A stretch of DNA of 63,266 nucleotides. It comes from an uncultured Candidatus Saccharibacteria bacterium (GTDB taxonomy: Bacteria; Patescibacteriota; Minisyncoccia; Phycocordibacterales; UBA9973). The notes beneath the pieces were generated by a model. It was given only the letters and a program-made list of their open reading frames with translations, had not been told where the DNA came from and did no database searches. Where the stretch lies: the NCBI GenBank assembly GCA_964565825.1, contig CAZMGK010000005.1, positions 1 to 63,266 of the forward strand, written 5' to 3'. A program made the translations under genes and the position numbers. This document shows positions 2,560-44,755 of the stretch, piece after piece. Each line of letters begins with the position of its first letter. Within the stretch, counting starts at the first letter, position 1.

Positions 2560-3090
2560 TTATTCCTTTTTTGTAAAAATACTATATGCTATTTTATCGA
2601 TGTCGAGTGATGATTGGTCGAGCTTGCAAGTAGTTTGTTCTGGTTCGTCGTAGTTCATACATTGAACAAATTGGAGTGTGAATGTCAGCGTACCGAGGTT
2701 GTTCCCCGTCTGAGTAACATACGTGTACGTTTTGTATGTACTTCCCGCAGCACCTTCGCTTGTCACCGTGACACAGTATTTTTTACCAGAAATTATTTTT
2801 TCTGTCATTTGTCCTCTTTGAGTAATTTCAGTCCCTGTTGGTGTACAACTAAATAGTCCAGTATCAAGCTTGACCATTGGTGGCCAATCCTTATCTACAA
2901 ACCGAACATGGTTTGTTTTGAGTGCAGTGTTATAATAAAGTGCTTCAGCTGGGGGCAATGGAACATGCGCCGGAAACAGTGCTGGTTGGACGGGTTGAAG
3001 ATTTTTCTTCATGTAGAACATGAAGCCAAGCACAAAAATAACAATAACAATCCATACAATATTCACTCGAAGATAAATAGGTTTGTTCAT
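2560..3090 (-). CDS. Hypothetical membrane-anchored protein (176 aa)
   Basis: One N-terminal TM helix (VWIVIVIFVLGFMFY). The start ATG is fused to element copy 1. Confidence 0.6.
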   Translation of the reverse strand: MNKPIYLRVNIVWIVIVIFVLGFMFYMKKNLQPVQPALFPAHVPLPPAEALYYNTALKTNHVRFVDKDWPPMVKLDTGLFSCTPTGTEITQRGQMTEKIISGKKYCVTVTSEGAAGSTYKTYTYVTQTGNNLGTLTFTLQFVQCMNYDEPEQTTCKLDQSSLDIDKIAYSIFTKKE

Positions 3091-3212
3091 CCCGTTAGAA
3101 ATAAGAAATCAAAGATTTCTGTACTTAATTAACATAATAATAGACCTGCATCCTACTCTTTTTATATAATTAAATCACATTAGTAACACGTTTGATTTCT
3201 AACGGGATTCAT
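3086..3212 (-). repeat. Start-codon-abutting inverted-repeat element, copy 1 (core 3091..3206)
   Basis: cccgttagaaat...atttctaacggg terminal inverted repeat, ttcat on both flanks and a subterminal hairpin at 3104..3120. The left end abuts the ATG of 2560..3090. Confidence 0.85.
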
Positions 3213-3260
3213 ATACACTAATCATATCACAATGAAAAACTAGTGTGCTATACTCTTTCT

Positions 3261-4029: not shown

Positions 4030-4584
4030 TTAAAACGACATTTTTTTCATCTCACGGCGAATAAATCTGTGAGCAGGGATTACTTGTGTAACGAGATTCC
4101 AAAATTTTTCTCCGTGATTGAACTCGGCCAAGTGACACAGCTCGTGAACGATAACATAGTCCATCATCTCTTGCGGAAGAAATGCGACTTTGTAATTAAA
4201 ATTAAGATTTCCTTTTGTTGAGCAACTTCCCCACCGTGTCTTTTGATTTCTCACGGTAATATCTTTGTAAGTAAATCCGTAAAGCGTATTTATGTCTGAA
4301 ACACGTTTTTCTAAAATAGCCCGAGCTTGTTCTTTGAGTTTTGAGTACTCGGTTTTATTTTCACCGAGTGTCAGCCGTTTTGGGAGACCTTGGGCAATAC
4401 GGTCCATTTCTTTTTGTTGAAACTGTGCTACCCTCTCTTCTATCCATGAAGTCTTTGAATGTACAAATTGTTTTGCGAGGAGAAGCGGAAGTCGATACGG
4501 CACAGTCACTACCACACGTCCATCTGGATGAACCATGATTCGCATACTTTTGGAACGTCTGTTTTTCTTGAGGGTGTACTCCAT
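4030..4584 (-). CDS. YgjP-like (DUF45/M48-type) metallohydrolase
   Basis: HELCHLAEFNHGEKFW zinc motif, with length and layout typical of the family. Confidence 0.8.
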   Translation of the reverse strand: MEYTLKKNRRSKSMRIMVHPDGRVVVTVPYRLPLLLAKQFVHSKTSWIEERVAQFQQKEMDRIAQGLPKRLTLGENKTEYSKLKEQARAILEKRVSDINTLYGFTYKDITVRNQKTRWGSCSTKGNLNFNYKVAFLPQEMMDYVIVHELCHLAEFNHGEKFWNLVTQVIPAHRFIRREMKKMSF

Positions 4585-4596
4585 AGATACAATCTA

Positions 4597-4636
4597 ACAC
4601 GGCCGGCATTTTTTAGACAAAAAATGCCGGCCGTGT
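4597..4636. terminator. 18-bp hairpin terminator after the cupin gene
   Basis: acacggccggcatttttt-agac-aaaaaatgccggccgtgt. Confidence 0.75.
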
Positions 4637-4651
4637 TCGTATTTCATTTTT

Positions 4652-5050
4652 TTACTCTGTTGTTACACCATCAAAATCTTCTCCATTTTTCTCTGCCTCT
4701 TCTTTGGTTAAACGAACTATCCCATCTTTGTGGTGTGCTGGAGAATAGAGGGTGTAGAGTTTGAGATCATCAGTTTCTGAAGTGTTCACGATGTTGTGTT
4801 TTGCACCTACTGGTACCACGAGAGCATCTCCATCACGAAGGATATATTCATGCCCATCAATAACACACAACCCCTCCCCTTTTTCAATACGAAAAAACTG
4901 GTCATTTTCAGTGTGTATTTCTAGTCCGATTTCTTCCTTAGGTTTCAAACTCATCAAAACGAGCTGGCTATGTTTACTGGTATAGAGTACTTTTCTAAAA
5001 TTATTATTTTCAACCGTATCTTTTTCTATGTTTGTGTGAAATCCTTTCAT
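4652..5050 (-). CDS. Cupin-domain protein
   Basis: GLEIHTENDQFFRIEKGEG...VPVGAKHNIVN cupin motifs. Start set at MKGFHT, with TGGTATACT 6 nt upstream. Confidence 0.75.
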   Translation of the reverse strand: MKGFHTNIEKDTVENNNFRKVLYTSKHSQLVLMSLKPKEEIGLEIHTENDQFFRIEKGEGLCVIDGHEYILRDGDALVVPVGAKHNIVNTSETDDLKLYTLYSPAHHKDGIVRLTKEEAEKNGEDFDGVTTE

Positions 5051-5085
5051 ACATACAGTATACCACATAAACACACCTGTAAGAA

Positions 5086-5328
5086 TCAGCTCGCAATCAA
5101 ATCTAATTTTTGCGCTCGAGTCATTTTTTTTATTCGGGCTTCTTCTTTTGACGCGAGTGAACGGTCTTTAAATTTTTTTGAATAGACAAGCACTACAGGT
5201 CTACGAGCATGCGTATACTTGGCACCGAGATTGGTACTATTGTGCTCTACGACTCTTCGGTCTACATCTGTCGTGATGCCGGCATAGAGCGTCTTATCTT
5301 TACACTTGAGAATATATACGTAGTACAT
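5086..5328 (-). CDS. GIY-YIG nuclease superfamily protein
   Basis: [30 protein letters not shown] is the GIY-YIG signature. Confidence 0.8.
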   Translation of the reverse strand: MYYVYILKCKDKTLYAGITTDVDRRVVEHNSTNLGAKYTHARRPVVLVYSKKFKDRSLASKEEARIKKMTRAQKLDLIAS

Positions 5329-5558
5329 TAGAGGTTCCCTTTTCTTTCTAAGTACAGATAAAGCCCTTCGACTTTCTCGCGAGCCCATGGTGGTTTGCGC
5401 AAGAATTTCAAGCTCGACTTAATACTCGGATCATTCTGGAAACAGTTGATATCTATTTTCTCGCCGAGTTTTTCCCACCCAAGATGCTCAACCAAACTCG
5501 AGAGGATCATCTCGAGCGTCTTGCCATGGAGTGGGTTGTTTTGTTGGGATTGTGACAT
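5328..5558 (-). CDS. DUF2132 (VF530-like) small protein
   Basis: [24 protein letters not shown]...[23 protein letters not shown] matches the DUF2132 pattern. Confidence 0.75.
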
Positions 5559-5570
5559 ATTTTTTAAACA

Positions 5571-5591
5571 AAAACCGCATTAAGCGGTTTT
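5571..5591. terminator. Hairpin terminator
   Basis: aaaaccgc-attaa-gcggtttt, downstream (minus sense) of the 55-aa ORF. Confidence 0.65.
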
Positions 5592-5603
5592 TGCAAAAGA
5601 TGT

Positions 5604-5771
5604 TTATTTTTTCCTATTAGTTAAAGCACTTGCTCTAATAGTCTTGAGAACCTTTCCTGCTTGACCCTTACCTTCCCGCATCGCTCTTGTATACGCCAAA
5701 ACAGCTTGTGTTTTAGGTGCACGCAAGACTTTCCCCGTTGTTGGAAATTTAATACCTGAAATAGTAACCAT
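5604..5771 (-). CDS. Small basic protein (55 aa, below the track cutoff)
   Basis: MVTISGIKFPTTGKVLRAPKTQAVLAYTRAMREGKGQAGKVLKTIRASALTNRKK. It starts 4 nt after the stop of 5776..6405 and is followed by a terminator. Confidence 0.4.
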   Translation of the reverse strand: MVTISGIKFPTTGKVLRAPKTQAVLAYTRAMREGKGQAGKVLKTIRASALTNRKK

Positions 5772-5775
5772 ATGT

Positions 5776-6405
5776 TTATACTATATCATAGTGAGTGTTA
5801 ATTTCAATACCATTTTCAGATGCGATACTTTGTAATTGTTCAGCCAATTCAATAAGATTTTTTGCGATAGATTTTCTGGCTTTTGAGACATCAAATTTAA
5901 TATAATCAAGTTTATCAGTACCATCCTTCACATCACTTACATAAATTTCAACCTTGGTTTTTGTGTCTCTTAAAATCTTAGCTACTGTCAATCTACTTTT
6001 AATATGTGTATCAAAAAATACTTCCGGTTTCATTTTCCGCTCTCTTTTCAAAAAAGCTTCAAATGCTTTGATCCAATCTTTTGGAATTATTAATATAACT
6101 TTTATTTTTTGGTCAGGTCTACCATATCGCTCTGCGCGCTGTTGTTTGATTTCAAAACCTGTAAAATCTTTCAATGTACCGTCGTACACCAATTGATCTT
6201 TTTTTGTTAAATACGACACAGCAAATTCAGTTTTACCGCTGGCGGTTCCTCCAGCCATTAAAATCACCTGTCGATATTTCTGTGATTTTAAATATTGAGT
6301 AAAATCTTTATCAGCTAACCGTGCACTTTCACGATGAAATAATTCAGATTTGTCTGGGTTATATTCAGGAATTTTTTTCTTGTACTCGTCGACTTCAATA
6401 AGCAT
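5776..6405 (-). CDS. Zeta-toxin-like P-loop kinase family protein
   Basis: Walker A GGTASGKT in a ~200-aa protein with zeta/AAA-kinase-like layout. Confidence 0.55.
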   Translation of the reverse strand: MLIEVDEYKKKIPEYNPDKSELFHRESARLADKDFTQYLKSQKYRQVILMAGGTASGKTEFAVSYLTKKDQLVYDGTLKDFTGFEIKQQRAERYGRPDQKIKVILIIPKDWIKAFEAFLKRERKMKPEVFFDTHIKSRLTVAKILRDTKTKVEIYVSDVKDGTDKLDYIKFDVSKARKSIAKNLIELAEQLQSIASENGIEINTHYDIV

Positions 6406-6428
6406 ACATTTATTTTATCACAAGGAAA

Positions 6429-6797
6429 TTACTTTTTTGCGATATTTTCAAGGATGATAGTAGTACCTTCTAATCTATAGCTAAATGACGCACTTCCAGT
6501 TATGTGTCCATCTTCGTATGACATCGTGCCTGTTTTTAGGCTTGAGTCAATAACGACACTCGTCACGTACCAGGTACCGCCGAGCACTGCTTCTTCTGGT
6601 GCGAGTGTAACGATATTTTTTCGAATATATGTTTCAACAAGTGCCTGCTCGTCGACTTCCTGTTCGACTATAGGTAGAGTTGGTGCAACACTTGTTTTTT
6701 GACCCCAGAATATCATCCAGAAACCAACACCTAAAATCACGAGAATCATCGCGAGTGTCTTACTATGGATTGGGTTTTTTTGTTGAGATTGTGACAT
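6429..6797 (-). CDS. Hypothetical membrane-anchored protein (122 aa)
   Basis: One TM helix (LAMILVILGVGFWMIFW). Its first ~19 codons are homologous to the DUF2132 gene start. Confidence 0.55.
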   Translation of the reverse strand: MSQSQQKNPIHSKTLAMILVILGVGFWMIFWGQKTSVAPTLPIVEQEVDEQALVETYIRKNIVTLAPEEAVLGGTWYVTSVVIDSSLKTGTMSYEDGHITGSASFSYRLEGTTIILENIAKK

Positions 6798-6841
6798 ATA
6801 GTACTCTGCTATTACAAATTAAAAATATCGTGGACATTTTA

Positions 6842-7114
6842 TCATTCTAGCATTTTGCAAAATGCTAGAATAGATTGAGCGCGAGGAGTGAGTTTGTGAC
6901 GAACATTTGGACCGTCGCTCCGTTTCATAATAAGTCCAGCTGTAGCCATTTTACGAATATGATCAGAGGTGTTTTCGTACCCTATTTTGAGCTTGTCGGA
7001 GATTTGCTGTACAGATAATTCTGGTTCCCTATCAAGTAGTTCTAAAATTTTAATTCGATTATGATTGGCAAATGCTTTCACAACTTGCTCAACTTTTTTA
7101 TACAACATAGCCAT
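6842..7114 (-). CDS. ArsR/SmtB-family winged-helix regulator
   Basis: NHNRIKILELLDREPELSVQQISDKLKIGYENTSDHIRKMATAGLI. Start set at MAMLYKK (7114), with TATAAT 6 nt upstream. Confidence 0.8.
   Translation of the reverse strand: MAMLYKKVEQVVKAFANHNRIKILELLDREPELSVQQISDKLKIGYENTSDHIRKMATAGLIMKRSDGPNVRHKLTPRAQSILAFCKMLE
6844..6871. promoter_or_regulatory. 28-nt perfect palindrome attctagcattttgcaaaatgctagaat (copy at the arsR-like 3' end)
   Basis: 31 nt (6841..6871) are identical to 7128..7158. It contains back-to-back TGCTAGAAT extended -10-like boxes. Confidence 0.6.
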
Positions 7115-33740: not shown

Positions 33741-34269
33741 TTACTTGAGAAAAAACAGTCTCAAGATTTTTAATCGTCTCTTCGTATGCAGGGAGCTCGC
33801 TTATTTGGGTGATGCCTAAATACCGAAGTGTGTCTATCGTTGGTACATAGATGTATGAACGACTATCTTTTTTATTTTCTTTTTTCTCAACAAGTCCTCG
33901 GAGATACAAATTTCTGAGAATGAATGAGGAATTGACTCCACGAACATAATCTACTTCACTCCTTGTTGCACCATTTTTGTACAATAAGATAGAAAGTGTC
34001 TCGAGACTTGCTTTTGAGAGCTCTCCACCGCGTTCTTCTTTTTCGACTGTTTCGAGGAATTCAGAAACAGCCGGGTTCGTTCCTAGCGCAAGTTCACCAT
34101 CTGATTCTACAATAACAATACCGGTGTCATCCGTGTACTGCATCCTAAGAGACTCAATAATAGCAACAAGCTCTTCTTCTGAAATATCGAGCTGTTCCCT
34201 AATGTATTTTTTTGACAGACTCTCCCCTTTTATAAATAAGAGCGCTTCGACAAGATTTTTTTTATTCAT
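33721..34269 (-). CDS. scpB: Segregation and condensation protein B
   Basis: VEALLFIKGESLS...LETLSILLYKNGATRSEVDYVRG. It follows scpA. Confidence 0.88.
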   Translation of the reverse strand: MNKKNLVEALLFIKGESLSKKYIREQLDISEEELVAIIESLRMQYTDDTGIVIVESDGELALGTNPAVSEFLETVEKEERGGELSKASLETLSILLYKNGATRSEVDYVRGVNSSFILRNLYLRGLVEKKENKKDSRSYIYVPTIDTLRYLGITQISELPAYEETIKNLETVFSQVNEEEHA

Positions 34270-34391
34270 CCCGTTAGAAATAAGAAATCGAAGATTTCTG
34301 TACTTGATTAATATTAAAATAGACCTGTATCATAATTCTTTTATTTTCTCATTATCTCTTAATAAACTGTTTGATTTCTAACGGGATTCAT
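34265..34391 (-). repeat. Start-codon-abutting inverted-repeat element, copy 2 (core 34270..34385), between scpA and scpB
   Basis: Same termini as copy 1, ttcat flanks and a hairpin at 34283..34299. It abuts the scpB ATG and contains the scpA stop codon (34378..34380). Confidence 0.85.
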
Positions 34392-35157
34392 ATCCTTCTA
34401 CGTTAACAGTACTTTTAGTAACATTCATATCCCCGAATGCACTTTCTTGGTCGGCTACCAATATACCTGTTCTAATAAGTTCGAGAATGGCAAGGAAGGA
34501 AATGAGGGTAAACACTTTTTCTTCTTTCGTGAATATTTTTTTTGACCCCGTAAATTCATTGAAGGAAAATGAAGAGAGCGATTCGACTTGTTTGTGGATA
34601 CGGTCCATCACTTGTTCTAAGGTAATCGTCGTACGTACTTTAATTTCAGGATTATTTTCGACAGTCTCTATCTGGGGAGCTTTTTTCATCACATCTTGTA
34701 TGCACTCATACAAATATGCTGTCGTTATGTGTGTGTCTGGAATAAATCTAACCTCTCTCTTTTGTTCTTTTTTGAGAAAAATAATATCTGTGTCAAAACG
34801 TTCGGCTATTTGCTTCGCAATATCTTTGTATATCTTGTAGACTTTGAGTCGTTCTTCAAGGTCGTCAATCGTGACTTTGTCTTCTTTCGTTATATCAAAG
34901 TTTGGAAGGAGTGAGCGAGATTTTATAAGGAGGAGTGTGGCAAGAATGACAAGATATCCAGTCAGTTCGTAGAAGTCTTTTGACTGACGTTCTTTCATTT
35001 CAGTTACATATGAGGTATATTCTTCAGCAATCGACGAGAGTGATATTTCATTGATGAATAATTTTTTACTCTCAATCAGAGACAACAGCAAATCAAGCGG
35101 TCCTTCGAACGTTGTTGCTTTCGTGATGAAACTAGGTGTGTCCTGTACTGTATCCAT
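34378..35157 (-). CDS. scpA: Segregation and condensation protein A
   Basis: FEGPLDLLLSLIESKKLFINEISLSSIAEEY. The last codons and the TAG stop lie within element copy 2. Confidence 0.88.
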   Translation of the reverse strand: MDTVQDTPSFITKATTFEGPLDLLLSLIESKKLFINEISLSSIAEEYTSYVTEMKERQSKDFYELTGYLVILATLLLIKSRSLLPNFDITKEDKVTIDDLEERLKVYKIYKDIAKQIAERFDTDIIFLKKEQKREVRFIPDTHITTAYLYECIQDVMKKAPQIETVENNPEIKVRTTITLEQVMDRIHKQVESLSSFSFNEFTGSKKIFTKEEKVFTLISFLAILELIRTGILVADQESAFGDMNVTKSTVNVEGYESR

Positions 35158-37238: not shown

Positions 37239-38246
37239 TTAGAAGTAGTTAATTTTCATTTTCTCTCTGATAATGTGCATATTTTCTTCAGCGACTGTTT
37301 GTGCCGCTTTGATTCCCTCTTTCAAAATTTCATCAACTAGTTTCGGATTGTTTTCATAGTACGCTCGTTTTTCTCGAATAGGCGCAAGCATACTGTCGAG
37401 TACTTCAATGAGTCTTTTTTTAATGACAACATCTCCGAGTCCACCTTTTTTGTAGTGTTTTTTGAGTTCTTCAACTTCTTCTTTGTTCGGGTCAAAAATA
37501 TCGAGATAGGTAAAAACAACATTTCCTTTTACTTCACCAGGGTCTGCTACATGAATATGATTTGGATCAGTATACATCTGCATTACTTTTTTTGAAATTG
37601 TTTCGCGAGTATCTGCGAGATTGATCGTATTACCGAGAGATTTGGACATTTTTGCACCACCGTCGAGACCGGGAAGGCGTACAGTATCACTGAGTACTGC
37701 TTTTGCGTGTTCAAATGTATGGCCATAAAATCTATTGAACGTATCAACAATTTCATTTGTTTGCTCTATTTGTGGTAACTGATCTTGACCAACCGGGATA
37801 CTATTTGCATGACAAAATAAAATATCAGCAGCTTGTGAAACTGGATACATAAGAAATCCAGCTGGAACTGTCTCGCTATATCCTTTCTGTTTCATTTCTG
37901 CTTTGACTGTTGGATTTCTTTTAAGTCGTGCAACGGTAACAAGGTTGAGAAAAAAAACAGTGAGTTCGGCAATTTGTGGAATCATTGATTGAATAAAGAA
38001 AGTTGTTTTCTTTGGATCTACTCCGCAAGCAAGATTGTCGAGGACGACTTCACGGACGTTGTCGCGAACTTTCTCTGGATTGTCGGCATTATCTGTGAAT
38101 GCTTGAACATCAGCAACCATGTAAAATGCTTGGTCAGCTGTGTCTTGCAATTTCAATCTATTCTGTATAGAGCCGACATAGTGCCCCAAATGGAGCTTGC
38201 CTGTTGGTCTGTCACCGGTTAAAACGATGTGTTTTTTGTCTTTCAT
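37239..38246 (-). CDS. trpS: Tryptophan--tRNA ligase
   Basis: TGDRPTGKLHLGHYVG (HIGH region) and KMSKSLGN. 335 aa. Confidence 0.93.
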   Translation of the reverse strand: MKDKKHIVLTGDRPTGKLHLGHYVGSIQNRLKLQDTADQAFYMVADVQAFTDNADNPEKVRDNVREVVLDNLACGVDPKKTTFFIQSMIPQIAELTVFFLNLVTVARLKRNPTVKAEMKQKGYSETVPAGFLMYPVSQAADILFCHANSIPVGQDQLPQIEQTNEIVDTFNRFYGHTFEHAKAVLSDTVRLPGLDGGAKMSKSLGNTINLADTRETISKKVMQMYTDPNHIHVADPGEVKGNVVFTYLDIFDPNKEEVEELKKHYKKGGLGDVVIKKRLIEVLDSMLAPIREKRAYYENNPKLVDEILKEGIKAAQTVAEENMHIIREKMKINYF

Positions 38247-38370
38247 CCCGTTAGAAGTAGGAAATCAGAGATTTCCATCCTATATTATTGTTTGATTAAT
38301 AAAATTAAATTTCCTTCAATATTTTACCCGTCCGTAAAGAGTAAATCGTCCGACTTCTAACGGGATTCAT
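38242..38370 (-). repeat. Start-codon-abutting inverted-repeat element, copy 3 (core 38247..38364), upstream of trpS
   Basis: cccgttagaagt...acttctaacggg termini, ttcat flanks and a hairpin ggaaatc-aga-gatttcc at 38260..38276. It abuts the trpS ATG. Confidence 0.85.
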
Positions 38371-38478
38371 ATACGAAGATTATTATACCATGGAATTAAA
38401 AAATCACTTCCCCATCATTTCCCCTCCTCTATCCACATAAAAATTTGGTCGGATATTCCAATGTGTTACACTAGCTCT

Positions 38479-39867
38479 ATGTCACAAGATTTACACGTTC
38501 CACCACAAGATCTCGATTCAGAAAAAGCAGTCCTCGCTTCAATTATGCTTCGTCCGGAAGCACTTTATGAAGTTGATGATCTTCTCATCTCAGATGTTTT
38601 TTATGCCGATAAACACAAGATAATTTACGGTATCATGATTGATCTTCATCGAGAAGGAAATCCGATTGATGTTATTACCCTTACCGCAAAATTAGAAAAT
38701 CTTAAAAAGCTCGACGCAATTGGTGGACGAAGTTACTTGACTGAACTTGTTGCGTCAGTCCCAACGACGACCAATGCTCGCTACTATGCCGAATCTATCT
38801 ATCAAAAATACACCCTCCGCCGTCTGATCAATGCCTCAAACACTAACATCAGTGATGCTTTTTCTCCAGGTGACCGACCAGTAGATGAAATTATAGATCT
38901 TGCTGAAAAAAGAATTTTTGATGTTGCGTCAAATACGAAAGGACAAAAATTTATTCCACTCAAAGACACACTCACCGGTGCATGGGATCGTATTGAGAAA
39001 TTGCACGAAACAAAAGGAGCACTCCGCGGTATTCCAACTGGATTTAAAAGTCTCGACAAAATGCTCGCTGGTTTTCAAAATTCAGACCTGATTATTTTGG
39101 CTGCTCGTCCATCTATGGGTAAGACCACGCTTGCACTCGACTTTGCCCGTCTCGTCGCAACCAACCACAATATCCCTGTTGGAATCTTTTCACTTGAAAT
39201 GGATTCGACACAGCTCGTTGATCGTATGTTGGCAGCGGAATCTCGGGTCAATGCGTGGAACCTCCGCACAGGACAACTTTCAACCGATAATGATTTTTCT
39301 CGTTTGCGTGATGGACTTGATCGTCTCTCTCGAGCACCTATCTATATCGACGATCAGTCTTCAAATACGATTTCTAAAATGCGTTCTTTTGCTCGTAAAC
39401 TCAAGATAGAGCATGGACTCGGGTTGGTTATTGTTGACTACCTCCAGCTCATGGCGACCAGTAAAACTCATGACTCTATGGTGAATCAGGTGACCGAAAT
39501 CTCTCGCTCTCTCAAAGGTCTCGCTCGTGACTTGAATGTGCCTGTTATTGCCCTCTCACAGCTCTCTCGTAACGTTGAACAGCGTGGAGGTAAACCAAGA
39601 CTGTCTGACCTTCGTGACTCTGGATCCATCGAGCAGGACGCTGACGTAGTTATGTTTATTCACCGAGAAGACAAATATAATGAAAATTCAGATAGACAGA
39701 ATATCGCCGAGATTCTCATAGAAAAACACCGAAATGGACCTGTCGGCAAAATCGAGCTCTATTTTGATGACAAGACGAGTACTTTTCTTGAACTCGATGA
39801 TAATACTCCAGCATCAAGTGCTTCGGGTATCAATAGTACGCAAGGCGGATTTGGTGGTATATTCTAG
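38479..39867 (+). CDS. dnaB: Replicative DNA helicase
   Basis: PPQDLDSEKAVLASIM..., Walker A ARPSMGKTT, and SLEM...IALSQLSR. TGTTACACT lies 6 nt before the ATG at 38479. Confidence 0.93.
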   Translation: MSQDLHVPPQDLDSEKAVLASIMLRPEALYEVDDLLISDVFYADKHKIIYGIMIDLHREGNPIDVITLTAKLENLKKLDAIGGRSYLTELVASVPTTTNARYYAESIYQKYTLRRLINASNTNISDAFSPGDRPVDEIIDLAEKRIFDVASNTKGQKFIPLKDTLTGAWDRIEKLHETKGALRGIPTGFKSLDKMLAGFQNSDLIILAARPSMGKTTLALDFARLVATNHNIPVGIFSLEMDSTQLVDRMLAAESRVNAWNLRTGQLSTDNDFSRLRDGLDRLSRAPIYIDDQSSNTISKMRSFARKLKIEHGLGLVIVDYLQLMATSKTHDSMVNQVTEISRSLKGLARDLNVPVIALSQLSRNVEQRGGKPRLSDLRDSGSIEQDADVVMFIHREDKYNENSDRQNIAEILIEKHRNGPVGKIELYFDDKTSTFLELDDNTPASSASGINSTQGGFGGIF

Positions 39868-43944: not shown

Positions 43945-44631
43945 TTAATAAACGATCGATTCTTTAACACTACAGTGTTCCGCAACCCAGGCTGTATCGA
44001 ATTCAGAGAGCTCGTGGCGAGTCTCTTCGTAAATATAATATGATTTATTAACAGGTTCGCATGGTGTGGTGACGCAGACAATCGGCATCTTGTCAGTAAT
44101 TTTTTCAGTCGGACAAGCTTGGATGGAACCATCAAAGTAAGCTCTGCAGTACGGTGGATTCACAGTACTCATACAGGCCATCATCGTGCAGGCCATCATT
44201 CCTTTAGGTGATGTACGACTACAGCTATTACATCCATCGTACCAGTTTTGACAGTTCGCTGGTGGTGTATTTGGATCAGGAGGTACAGTGCTAGTACAAA
44301 ATTGTGAACGGAGAACACCTCTAGTCATTGGACCCACAAAACCAGTTGTCGAGATGTCTTGATTGAGCTGGTATGCGCGTGCGGATTTCAATGTGATCCA
44401 CCCAAAATACCCAGTTGGAGCAACATGAAAGTACCCAGCAGTCTTTAGTGCTTCTTGTAATTCTAAAACTTTTGCCCCTTTTCCATTATGATACCCGTCT
44501 CCAAAACGGAGGTTTTGAGTAAATTTAAAACAACCAACCCGAGCATCATTTGCTGTATTCTCTGCATTGGCTGTTAAGAGTGTGGTCATACAAAATATGA
44601 CCATTATAAATAAACTGAATGTCTTTTTCAT
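43945..44631 (-). CDS. Secreted peptidoglycan-binding-domain protein with a Cys-rich C-terminal region
   Basis: Signal peptide, a PG_binding_1-like segment GAKVLELQEALKTAGYF...GYFGWITLKSARAYQ, and a C-terminal half with 14 Cys. Confidence 0.7.
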   Translation of the reverse strand: MKKTFSLFIMVIFCMTTLLTANAENTANDARVGCFKFTQNLRFGDGYHNGKGAKVLELQEALKTAGYFHVAPTGYFGWITLKSARAYQLNQDISTTGFVGPMTRGVLRSQFCTSTVPPDPNTPPANCQNWYDGCNSCSRTSPKGMMACTMMACMSTVNPPYCRAYFDGSIQACPTEKITDKMPIVCVTTPCEPVNKSYYIYEETRHELSEFDTAWVAEHCSVKESIVY

Positions 44632-44755
44632 CCCGTTAGAAGTAGGAAGTCCGAAGACTTCCGTCCTTAATTAGCTAATAATAAAATAATCCGATCACGG
44701 TGTAATTTGTACCCGTTACTTAGTAATAAAACGTCTGACTTCTAACGGGATTCAT
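44627..44755 (-). repeat. Start-codon-abutting inverted-repeat element, copy 4 (core 44632..44749)
   Basis: cccgttagaagt...acttctaacggg termini, ttcat flanks and a hairpin ggaagtc-cgaa-gacttcc at 44645..44662. It abuts the ATG of 43945..44631. Confidence 0.85.

Follow-up and report, generated by a model that had tools for sequence, protein, structure and literature searches.

Mini-ORFs ahead of trpS and three other genes of a Saccharibacteria bacterium as probable by-products of a miniature element inserted into start codons

Introduction

Why should four unrelated genes in one bacterial genome be preceded by nearly the same short open reading frame (ORF)? The question is raised by a 63,266-nt stretch of DNA from an uncultured Candidatus Saccharibacteria bacterium (GenBank assembly GCA_964565825.1, contig CAZMGK010000005.1), analysed at its full length and called the window below. 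It holds four copies of a repeated element, all on the minus strand, each adjoining the ATG of a gene. The downstream genes, which encode a 176-residue membrane protein, ScpB, TrpS, and a peptidoglycan-binding protein, are unrelated, and a gene-specific regulator is therefore unlikely. All four copies start with ATG AAT CCC GTT AGA A.. and specify peptides of the form MNPVR[NS].. over 10-21 codons.

A preliminary description of the window saw in this mini-ORF a conserved unit at the head of every copy, proposed that its translation unmasks the ATG of the gene behind it, and suggested that trpS carries the element in place of a T-box. All four mini-ORFs translate exactly as given there. The evidence below indicates, however, that the mini-ORF is very probably a by-product of transposition, in which an ancestral start codon reads into a transposon end, and not a conserved leader peptide.

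The Ancestral trpS Start Codon and the Empty Sites

Copy 3 precedes trpS. Between 38242 and 38370 (minus strand, as for all coordinates in this paragraph) the sequence reads ATGAA-T-CCCGTTAGAAG ... CTTCTAACGGG-A-TGAA and continues into the trpS coding sequence. The 120-nt element (38246..38365, T-CCCGTTAGAA...TTCTAACGGG-A) is bounded by two copies of TGAA, one upstream at 38366..38369, where the empty site of relatives reads ..GTATATGAAAGA.., and one downstream at 38242..38245. The start codon from which trpS is now read (37239..38246) takes its A from the element's last base, 38246, and its TG from the downstream duplication. The ancestral trpS ATG (38368-38370) opens the mini-ORF MNPVRSRTIYSLRTGKILKEI* (38305..38370, 21 codons plus stop), which is made up of the old ATG, the duplicated target, the terminal repeat, and unconstrained interior. 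In the mini-ORF frame, the 5′ terminal inverted repeat TCCCGTTAGAAG (38354..38365) supplies the last base of codon 2 (N), all of P-V-R, and the first base(s) of codon 6 (S). The 3′ terminal inverted repeat CTTCTAACGGGA (38246..38257) pairs with it in RNA or single-stranded DNA. Just 5′ of this second repeat lies a local 7-bp hairpin, P2 (GGAAATC-TCT-GATTTCC, 38260..38276), whose pairs 101/119 and 105/115 covary. An extended -10 box, TGGTATAAT, stands at 38382..38390, 11 nt before the old ATG.

The organism of the window is Paceibacterota/Nomurabacteria-like within the Patescibacteria. The element is absent from close relatives. In those whose TrpS is 93, 90, and 81% identical, dnaB and trpS remain divergent across a spacer of 107 nt, and the dnaB-trpS spacer of four relatives lacks the element. 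This spacer reads ..TGGTATAAT-N11-ATGAAAGA.., and in the window it is longer by 124 nt, namely the 120-nt element and TGAA, but otherwise the same. At the membrane protein gene, two relatives (L245 and L246) read TGATATAAT-TGATAT-ATGAATAAA without an element, with N6 between the -10 box and the ATG. The peptidoglycan-binding gene of another relative (L244) shows the empty site ..ACATATATGAAAAAGAT.., and the scpA/scpB junction of a 93% relative (L120) lacks the element as well. An empty orthologous site was found for all four window copies, and in the element-free relatives the genes stand behind the same leaderless -10 promoters. It follows that the upstream ATG, with which the mini-ORF opens, is the host gene's ancestral start codon. 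The mini-ORF arose by insertion, and the start codon rebuilt behind the element is chimeric, with A from the element and TG from the duplication.

These comparisons bear out part of the preliminary description. The -10 boxes that it placed 8 nt from the ATG of copy 1 (TGATATGAT, 3221-3229, minus strand) and 11 nt from that of copy 3 are present at those positions, and both belong to ancestral promoters. Its near-leaderless transcript also stands, with the upstream ATG just after a real -10 box in the same TGGTATAAT-N11-ATG (trpS) and TGATATAAT-N6-ATG (membrane protein) arrangements in element-free relatives.

Transposition Footprints and Distribution

Further copies were collected in two scans, both of which demanded exact 10-mers or 20-mers, and all counts are among the matches listed. 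Scan 1 took one genome per species and searched for CCCGTTAGAA-N85-115-TTCTAACGGG with the flanks left free, yielding 136 copies from at least 119 loci. Scan 2 was anchored solely on the 3′ end of the window's subfamily and yielded 94 unique full copies. Any ORF of at least 60 codons was counted as a downstream gene. Beyond the window, start-codon copies number about 180, mostly in Patescibacteria, and show no coding constraint. The hosts in scan 1 are likewise mostly Patescibacteria (Saccharibacteria, Paceibacterota, Kaiser-, Nomura-, and Nealsonbacteria, Kazan, and Berkelbacteria), with a few among Omnitrophota, Deltaproteobacteria-type lineages (including Syntrophobacter and Syntrophorhabdus), Planctomycetota, and Stahlbacteria.

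An 11-12-bp terminal repeat, YCCCGTTAGAA(R), is found at both ends of the four window copies and of more than 250 others, and its 5′ instance is almost invariant in 58 copies retrieved through the opposite end. In the 136 copies of scan 1, the outermost pair beyond the 10-mers is complementary with few exceptions (T..A in 73, C..G in 57, other in 6); the rebuilt start codon of the C...G subfamily is GTG. The 4-bp flanks form a perfect direct repeat in 93 of these copies, and a 5-bp extension matches in only 4. The duplicated 4-mer varies (TGAA 45, TAAA 12, TGGA 8, TGAG 8, TATG 7, and others), with at least 14 different sequences. Complementary ends together with a 4-bp duplication of variable sequence point to a cut-and-paste element that makes 4-bp staggered cuts. 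A minority of scan 2 copies have 5-bp duplications. Under ISfinder conventions, 'CC' ends with 4-5-bp duplications resemble the IS1380 family, which is no more than a lead. Element sizes across the family range from 66 to 137 nt, the subfamilies of 66, about 75, and 105-135 nt have identical termini, and the sole ORFs are accidental mini-ORFs.

Within the window, a profile built from 49 copies returns exactly the four copies. CCCGTTAGAA and its complement occur eight times exactly, or nine times if one mismatch is allowed; 2.7 matches are expected in a shuffled window, and none of 100 shuffles reached nine. The window elements are 118-120 nt long, resemble MITEs (miniature inverted-repeat transposable elements), and have the termini T-CCCGTTAGAA...TTCTAACGGG-A. 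A distance of 122 or 124 nt separates the old ATG from the new one, which puts the two out of frame, with stops after 10-21 codons.

Several loci show variations on this pattern. At L190 (about 4170-4550), three identical 121-nt copies stand in tandem with only the duplication TGTA between them, which indicates either repeated insertion at one target or amplification at a junction; the TGTA-separated copies argue for a real target preference. Eight non-Patescibacteria copies (L002, L031, L038, L051, L058, L078, L117, and L119) have the same 10-mer termini around GC-rich internal hairpins, and are intergenic, flanked by GTAAAC or GTTTAC (duplication TAAA/TTTA), and away from start codons. Clusters of short palindromes with the same arms occur in L068, L116, and L079. 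Two viral contigs (L247, 6554-6671, and L248, 8692-8809) were rejected as carriers, as they match only through an unrelated repeated GTTCTAACG motif and show no duplication. A BLAST search of the element against plasmids returned just two chance matches. Integron attC sites, suggested by the resemblance of GTTAGAA/TTCTAAC, were discarded: in attC the arms come in the opposite order, and the element has a duplication.

Coding Constraint on the Mini-ORF

In 58 alignable scan 2 copies, the variability at codon positions 1, 2, and 3 is 1.26, 1.32, and 0.91 bits, respectively. Third positions are thus the least variable, which is the opposite of a coding pattern. The preliminary description had read the differences beyond the repeat as largely synonymous, an impression from four sequences that vanishes with more copies. 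Stops also fall within the first eight codons, which it had named as grounds for refutation: further copies reach a stop after 3, 4, 6, or 7 codons, or are read in another register. Mini-ORF length ranges from 4 to 39 codons in scan 2 and from 3 to 42 over both scans. Only M-x-PVR[SNK] is common to the mini-ORFs, and residues past the sixth vary freely (SPLVN, SLSVN, SHGNQK, SHICN, and others). Insertions two bases earlier (duplication YATG) give M-P/S-R-stop, and copies with a 5-bp duplication give M-x-S-R-stop. Stops are slightly rarer in the mini-ORF frame (117) than in the other frames (152 and 135), with 103-129 on the other strand.

The start codon fares no better. The upstream A, T, and G are retained in 84, 84, and 76% of copies, and the two adjacent duplicated bases in 84 and 83%. 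In roughly a fifth of the copies with an intact gene, the old ATG is mutated (ATA, ATT, CTG, ACA, or TTG). The A/G change that gives N (AAT) or S (AGT) covaries with its partner in the 3′ arm (GC 33, AU 15, broken 1), and the N/S alternation is the 5′ half of a compensatory base-pair change, not a peptide constraint. What had looked like one conserved unit consists of the ancestral start, the TGAA duplication, and the terminal repeat, read as ATG AA|T CCC GTT AGA A (MNPVR[NS]). A regulatory upstream ORF (uORF) or leader peptide is not supported, as frame, start, length, and codon content are not conserved beyond nucleotide constraints. Also set aside, as too weak to claim, was a coupling in which translation ends at a stop 4 nt ahead of the main ATG: frame 0 reads through in 15 of 61 copies, the other two frames in 6 each, and the reverse strand in 10-11, and by our own count the lengths of GC-rich subfamily elements have no modulo 3 bias.

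The Other Window Copies and Neighbouring Genes

The three remaining copies, also on the minus strand, have the same organisation. Copy 1 (118 nt, 3090..3207) precedes the 176-residue membrane protein gene (2560-3090); its mini-ORF MNPVRNQTCY* occupies 3180-3212 and its TGAA duplications 3208-3211 and 3086-3089. Copy 4 (120 nt, 44631..44750) lies before the gene for the 228-residue peptidoglycan-binding protein (43945-44631), with the mini-ORF MNPVRSQTFYY* at 44720-44755 and TGAA at 44751-44754 and 44627-44630. The public record of this gene has 214 residues from an internal Met, the ORF from the rebuilt ATG has 228, and an orthologue has 230. Gene callers appear to misplace starts beside the element.

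Copy 2 (118 nt, 34269..34386) lies between scpA and scpB, with the mini-ORF MNPVRNQTVY* at 34359-34391 and TGAA at 34387-34390 and 34265-34268. Here scpA (34378-35157) ends at a TAG within the 5′ repeat of the element. Its frame (34378-34395) now closes with ..E-G-Y-E-S-R-stop, the last codons and the TAG lying within that repeat; before the insertion it would have ended with ..E-G-Y-E-stop, its TAA overlapping the ATGAATAA of scpB.

Around trpS, the start of the divergent dnaB (plus strand) is likely at 38479 and not at the first ATG, 38461; TGTTACACT lies ahead of it at 38464-38472. N-terminal extensions in TrpS homologues (347-352 residues) do not stem from elements but from in-frame starts further upstream, within the promoter region. 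In one relative (L122), the second gene downstream of trpS encodes a very large RHS/YD-repeat protein of 2335 residues (4451-7008; SpvB, TEN_YD-shell, and LysM matches), at a place taken by aspS-type genes in the window lineage.

Structure, Promoters, and Expression of the Interrupted Genes

RNA folding of all four copies gives a 14-bp terminal helix that takes in the first two bases of the downstream AUG, with z-scores of -3.1 to -4.5. The partner of this AUG is the stretch just after the upstream ATG. Each copy also folds the 7-bp local hairpin just before the 3′ arm, which is conserved. Folding and covariation uphold the earlier claim that pairing with the 5′ arm masks the downstream ATG, and melting of the helix by a ribosome on codons 2-6 would be physically reasonable.

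The window genes have no Shine-Dalgarno sequences, and many show an extended -10 box (TGnTAnnnT), 6 nt, and the ATG; they look leaderless. In the 131 start-codon copies with a surviving old ATG, TAnnnT has a sharp maximum 6 nt upstream (36 cases, where the background is about 5), and the extended form TGnTAnnnT is found in 35; about a third of these copies follow a long upstream ORF, that is, they lie inside operons. Promoter calls here are consensus matches. They mark genuine, ancestral promoters, and the old AUG would lie at or within a few bases of the mRNA 5′ end.

A second set of matches lies inside the element. In the window's 117-121-nt subfamily, 30 of 73 copies have an internal gene-ward TGnTAnnnT 67-74 nt before the main ATG, while the other strand has one in 3 of 73. 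At the homologous position, the window copies carry -10-like hexamers (TATAAA, TATGAT, TAAAAT, and TACAAA), without the TG extension. Internal boxes of the form TGnTATAAT fall at alignment columns of about 44-55, for example in L127, L133, L135, L140, L199, and L217. A promoter at the 3′ end of the element that would make the rebuilt ATG leaderless was considered and rejected, as no TAnnnT stands at a fitting spacing.

A third arrangement is found in the 66-nt subfamily (L129, L131, L138, L144, L147, L151, L164, L208, L212, and L214). Here exactly 66 nt, free of stops, lie in frame between the old ATG and the gene in 10 of 10 copies, and reversing the sequence introduces stops in all 10. Translation from the old ATG would add a 24-residue N-terminus, M-x-PVRSKKSxISADSxKANRTSNG. 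Such an in-frame form suits leaderless genes, in which only the 5′ AUG is usable.

The sequence comparisons show how the mini-ORF arose, and a route of expression can be proposed on this basis. In each of four unrelated genes, a non-autonomous element of 118-120 nt with the ends Y-CCCGTTAGAA / TTCTAACGGG-R and a 4-bp target duplication split the start codon after its A (A|TGAA), duplicating TGAA. The original ATG and promoter were left upstream, and reading now enters the inverted repeat, giving M-N-P-V-R-(N/S) and then unconstrained sequence to the first stop; codons 2-6 are the target duplication and the terminal inverted repeat. The terminal purine of the element and the duplicated TG rebuild the ATG (GTG in the C...G subfamily) of an intact gene. 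In the proposed route, transcription from the old promoter would begin at the old AUG or close to it, and the 14-bp helix would keep the rebuilt AUG paired. Ribosomes starting at the old AUG most likely open this helix and so keep the gene expressed, and at scpB a ribosome finishing scpA inside the 5′ arm would open it likewise. A weak gene-ward promoter inside the element may additionally give transcripts without the 5′ arm. Ribosome-driven unmasking is thus a possible and plausible way in which the insertion is tolerated, judging from the sequence features. It is neither universal nor under detectable selection. The mini-ORF peptide itself would be functionless by either expression route.

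Alternative Explanations

In one alternative, the mini-ORF is a selected regulatory uORF: the downstream start could be unmasked only if ribosomes on a near-leaderless transcript translated the mini-ORF and thereby melted the 5′ arm. The helix that joins the region after the old AUG to the rebuilt AUG fits this proposal, as do the leaderless-type -10 boxes with their peak 6 nt before the old AUG, the survival of the old ATG in about 70-80% of start-codon copies, and the termination of scpA within the 5′ arm of copy 2, to equal effect. However, the ATG is kept no better than the adjoining duplicated bases that are not part of it, and it is gone in about 20% of copies with an intact downstream ORF. 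The codon-position signature is absent, lengths of 3-42 codons, register shifts, and stops before codon 8 occur, and the 66-nt subfamily instead reads straight into the gene. A selected uORF is therefore unlikely. The many window-subfamily copies with an internal gene-ward extended -10 box also speak against it, and they are the basis of a further proposal, that the gene is expressed chiefly from a promoter inside the element, with transcripts that lack the 5′ arm and an old ATG and mini-ORF that are irrelevant remnants. The strand asymmetry of the internal box would account for the fixed orientation, and the hexamers at the homologous position extend the proposal to the window copies. Against it, other subfamilies are not enriched (8 forward, 18 reverse), the 66-nt subfamily is too short for a promoter and is still orientation-specific, and the window copies lack the TG extension and would have a leader of about 65 nt without a Shine-Dalgarno sequence. 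Expression mainly from within the element is rather less likely than not.

Two other readings concern the nature of the element. The idea that it is a trpS-specific riboregulator replacing a T-box draws on its place in the trpS 5′ region and its stable structure. The same element precedes the scpB, membrane protein, and peptidoglycan-binding protein genes, the relatives at 81-93% TrpS identity have neither element nor T-box in their 107-nt spacer, and no Rfam match reaches the gathering score or an E below 0.1, which refutes this part of the preliminary description. It is also very improbable that the element is a REP/REPIN or IS200/IS605-derived palindrome moved by a single-strand Y1 transposase and not a cut-and-paste MITE, even though the whole element is an imperfect palindrome whose arms covary as if pairing mattered, the orientation bias is typical of strand-specific single-strand transposition, and short palindromic versions cluster in non-Patescibacteria. 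A strict 4-bp duplication of variable sequence accompanies 93 of the 136 listed copies, and to our knowledge the REP/REPIN and IS200/IS605 families make no target duplication. Neither a RAYT nor a TnpA gene turned up close to the copies, in loci that were searched for one less than exhaustively.

Position and Orientation Bias

The copies are concentrated on start codons. In scan 1, 94 of 136 adjoin an ORF of 60 or more codons starting at the terminal R+TG or 2 nt further; in scan 2, at least 74 of 94 have an ORF of at least 60 codons starting at the terminal A+TG. The start-codon share is about 70-90%, in fixed orientation, and orientation relative to the gene agrees with the nearest relative 43:3. 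With its elements removed, the window has 28 ATGRA sites at starts and 43 at other intergenic positions, and a preference for ATGRA combined with loss of intragenic insertions predicts about 40% at starts. Targeting of stop codons, which TAAA and TTGA contain, was dismissed, as only a few of the copies away from starts lie on stop codons.

Several points weigh against regarding the mini-ORF as a passive relic of transposition. The observed start-codon share exceeds the roughly 40% predicted for such a relic, and the orientation bias is not accounted for. The rebuilt AUG would have to be translated from within a stable helix without a Shine-Dalgarno sequence. The copies come from related metagenome-assembled genomes and are not independent samples. 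Mobility is deduced from footprints: a search of about 1.7 Mb of loci for inverted-repeat pairs with gaps of 0.14-5 kb gave no transposase or autonomous partner, and wider collections cannot be scanned at such gaps. As for the excess in position and orientation, either targeting or selection is at work, or the 40% estimate is too crude. The orientation bias can be partly rationalised by the gene-ward internal -10 box and by the stop-free 66-nt form.

A stronger interpretation of the excess is that the family homes to start codons, either through integration machinery that recognises translation starts in a fixed polarity or through retention of copies as a portable 5′ control module, with the near-invariant terminal helix bound by a common factor. 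Such homing seems decidedly unlikely. If it were true, a sizeable share of the genes of many Patescibacteria, including the essential trpS and scpB, would be under one post-transcriptional switch, with the stranded old AUG as ribosome entry.

Significance and Relation to Known Systems

With the mini-ORF taken as a transposition by-product, start codons beside the element are chimeras whose first base is the element's and whose other two belong to the duplication, and annotation should not treat the mini-ORFs as genes. Abundant across Patescibacteria, the family sits precisely on the starts of essential genes in leaderless hosts free of Shine-Dalgarno sequences. It thus offers a natural test of how leaderless-type ribosomes locate a start codon hidden at a hairpin's base, and it bears on the tolerance of streamlined genomes for transposons and on whether a transposon can target start codons. 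Rfam 15 gives nothing at the gathering score across the window, and in the copy 3 region only chance snoRNA matches with E of 0.6 or worse. No description of a family that inserts into and rebuilds start codons was found in Rfam 15 or in the literature (subscription journals and ISfinder not covered), and the family looks undescribed.

The ermC leader peptide and the MS2 coat/replicase pair are examples of translational coupling by ribosome-mediated unmasking, in which the leader ORF is conserved and its codons matter. As in those systems, the upstream translated stretch pairs with the downstream start, so that translation could expose it. Unlike in those systems, the ORF is accidental, and its sequence, length, and even presence are unconstrained.

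Among mobile elements, Correia (NEMIS) of Neisseria, which duplicates TA, and RUP of pneumococcus differ from the present family, which has YCCCGTTAGAA termini and a 4-bp T[GA][AG]A duplication. MITEs are defined by terminal inverted repeats, a target duplication, the lack of a transposase gene, and a long hairpin (Delihas, 2011; PMC3184786). Like Correia/NEMIS and RUP, the element is shorter than 200 bp, with terminal inverted repeats, a target duplication, and no coding capacity; further likenesses are the long hairpin, co-transcription with neighbouring genes, and the ability to carry outward promoters (PMC3184786). Rickettsia palindromic elements and other repeats are fused in frame to genes (PMC3184786), a likeness confined to the 66-nt subfamily; unlike them, the window copies are out of frame with stops, and insertion is at the start codon and not inside an ORF. 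Neisseria REP2 and the Borrelia inverted repeats are also repeats directly upstream of genes that supply expression signals including the ATG (PMC3184786). However, those repeats bring their own promoter, ribosome-binding site, and ATG, whereas the element contributes only the first base of the start codon and no ribosome-binding site, and its transposition footprints, unlike theirs, are clear. A preference for start codons as insertion sites is not described in that review (PMC3184786). In this the family departs from the MITEs described so far, as about 70-90% of its copies sit exactly on a start codon, in fixed orientation, with the codon rebuilt from the terminal purine of the element.

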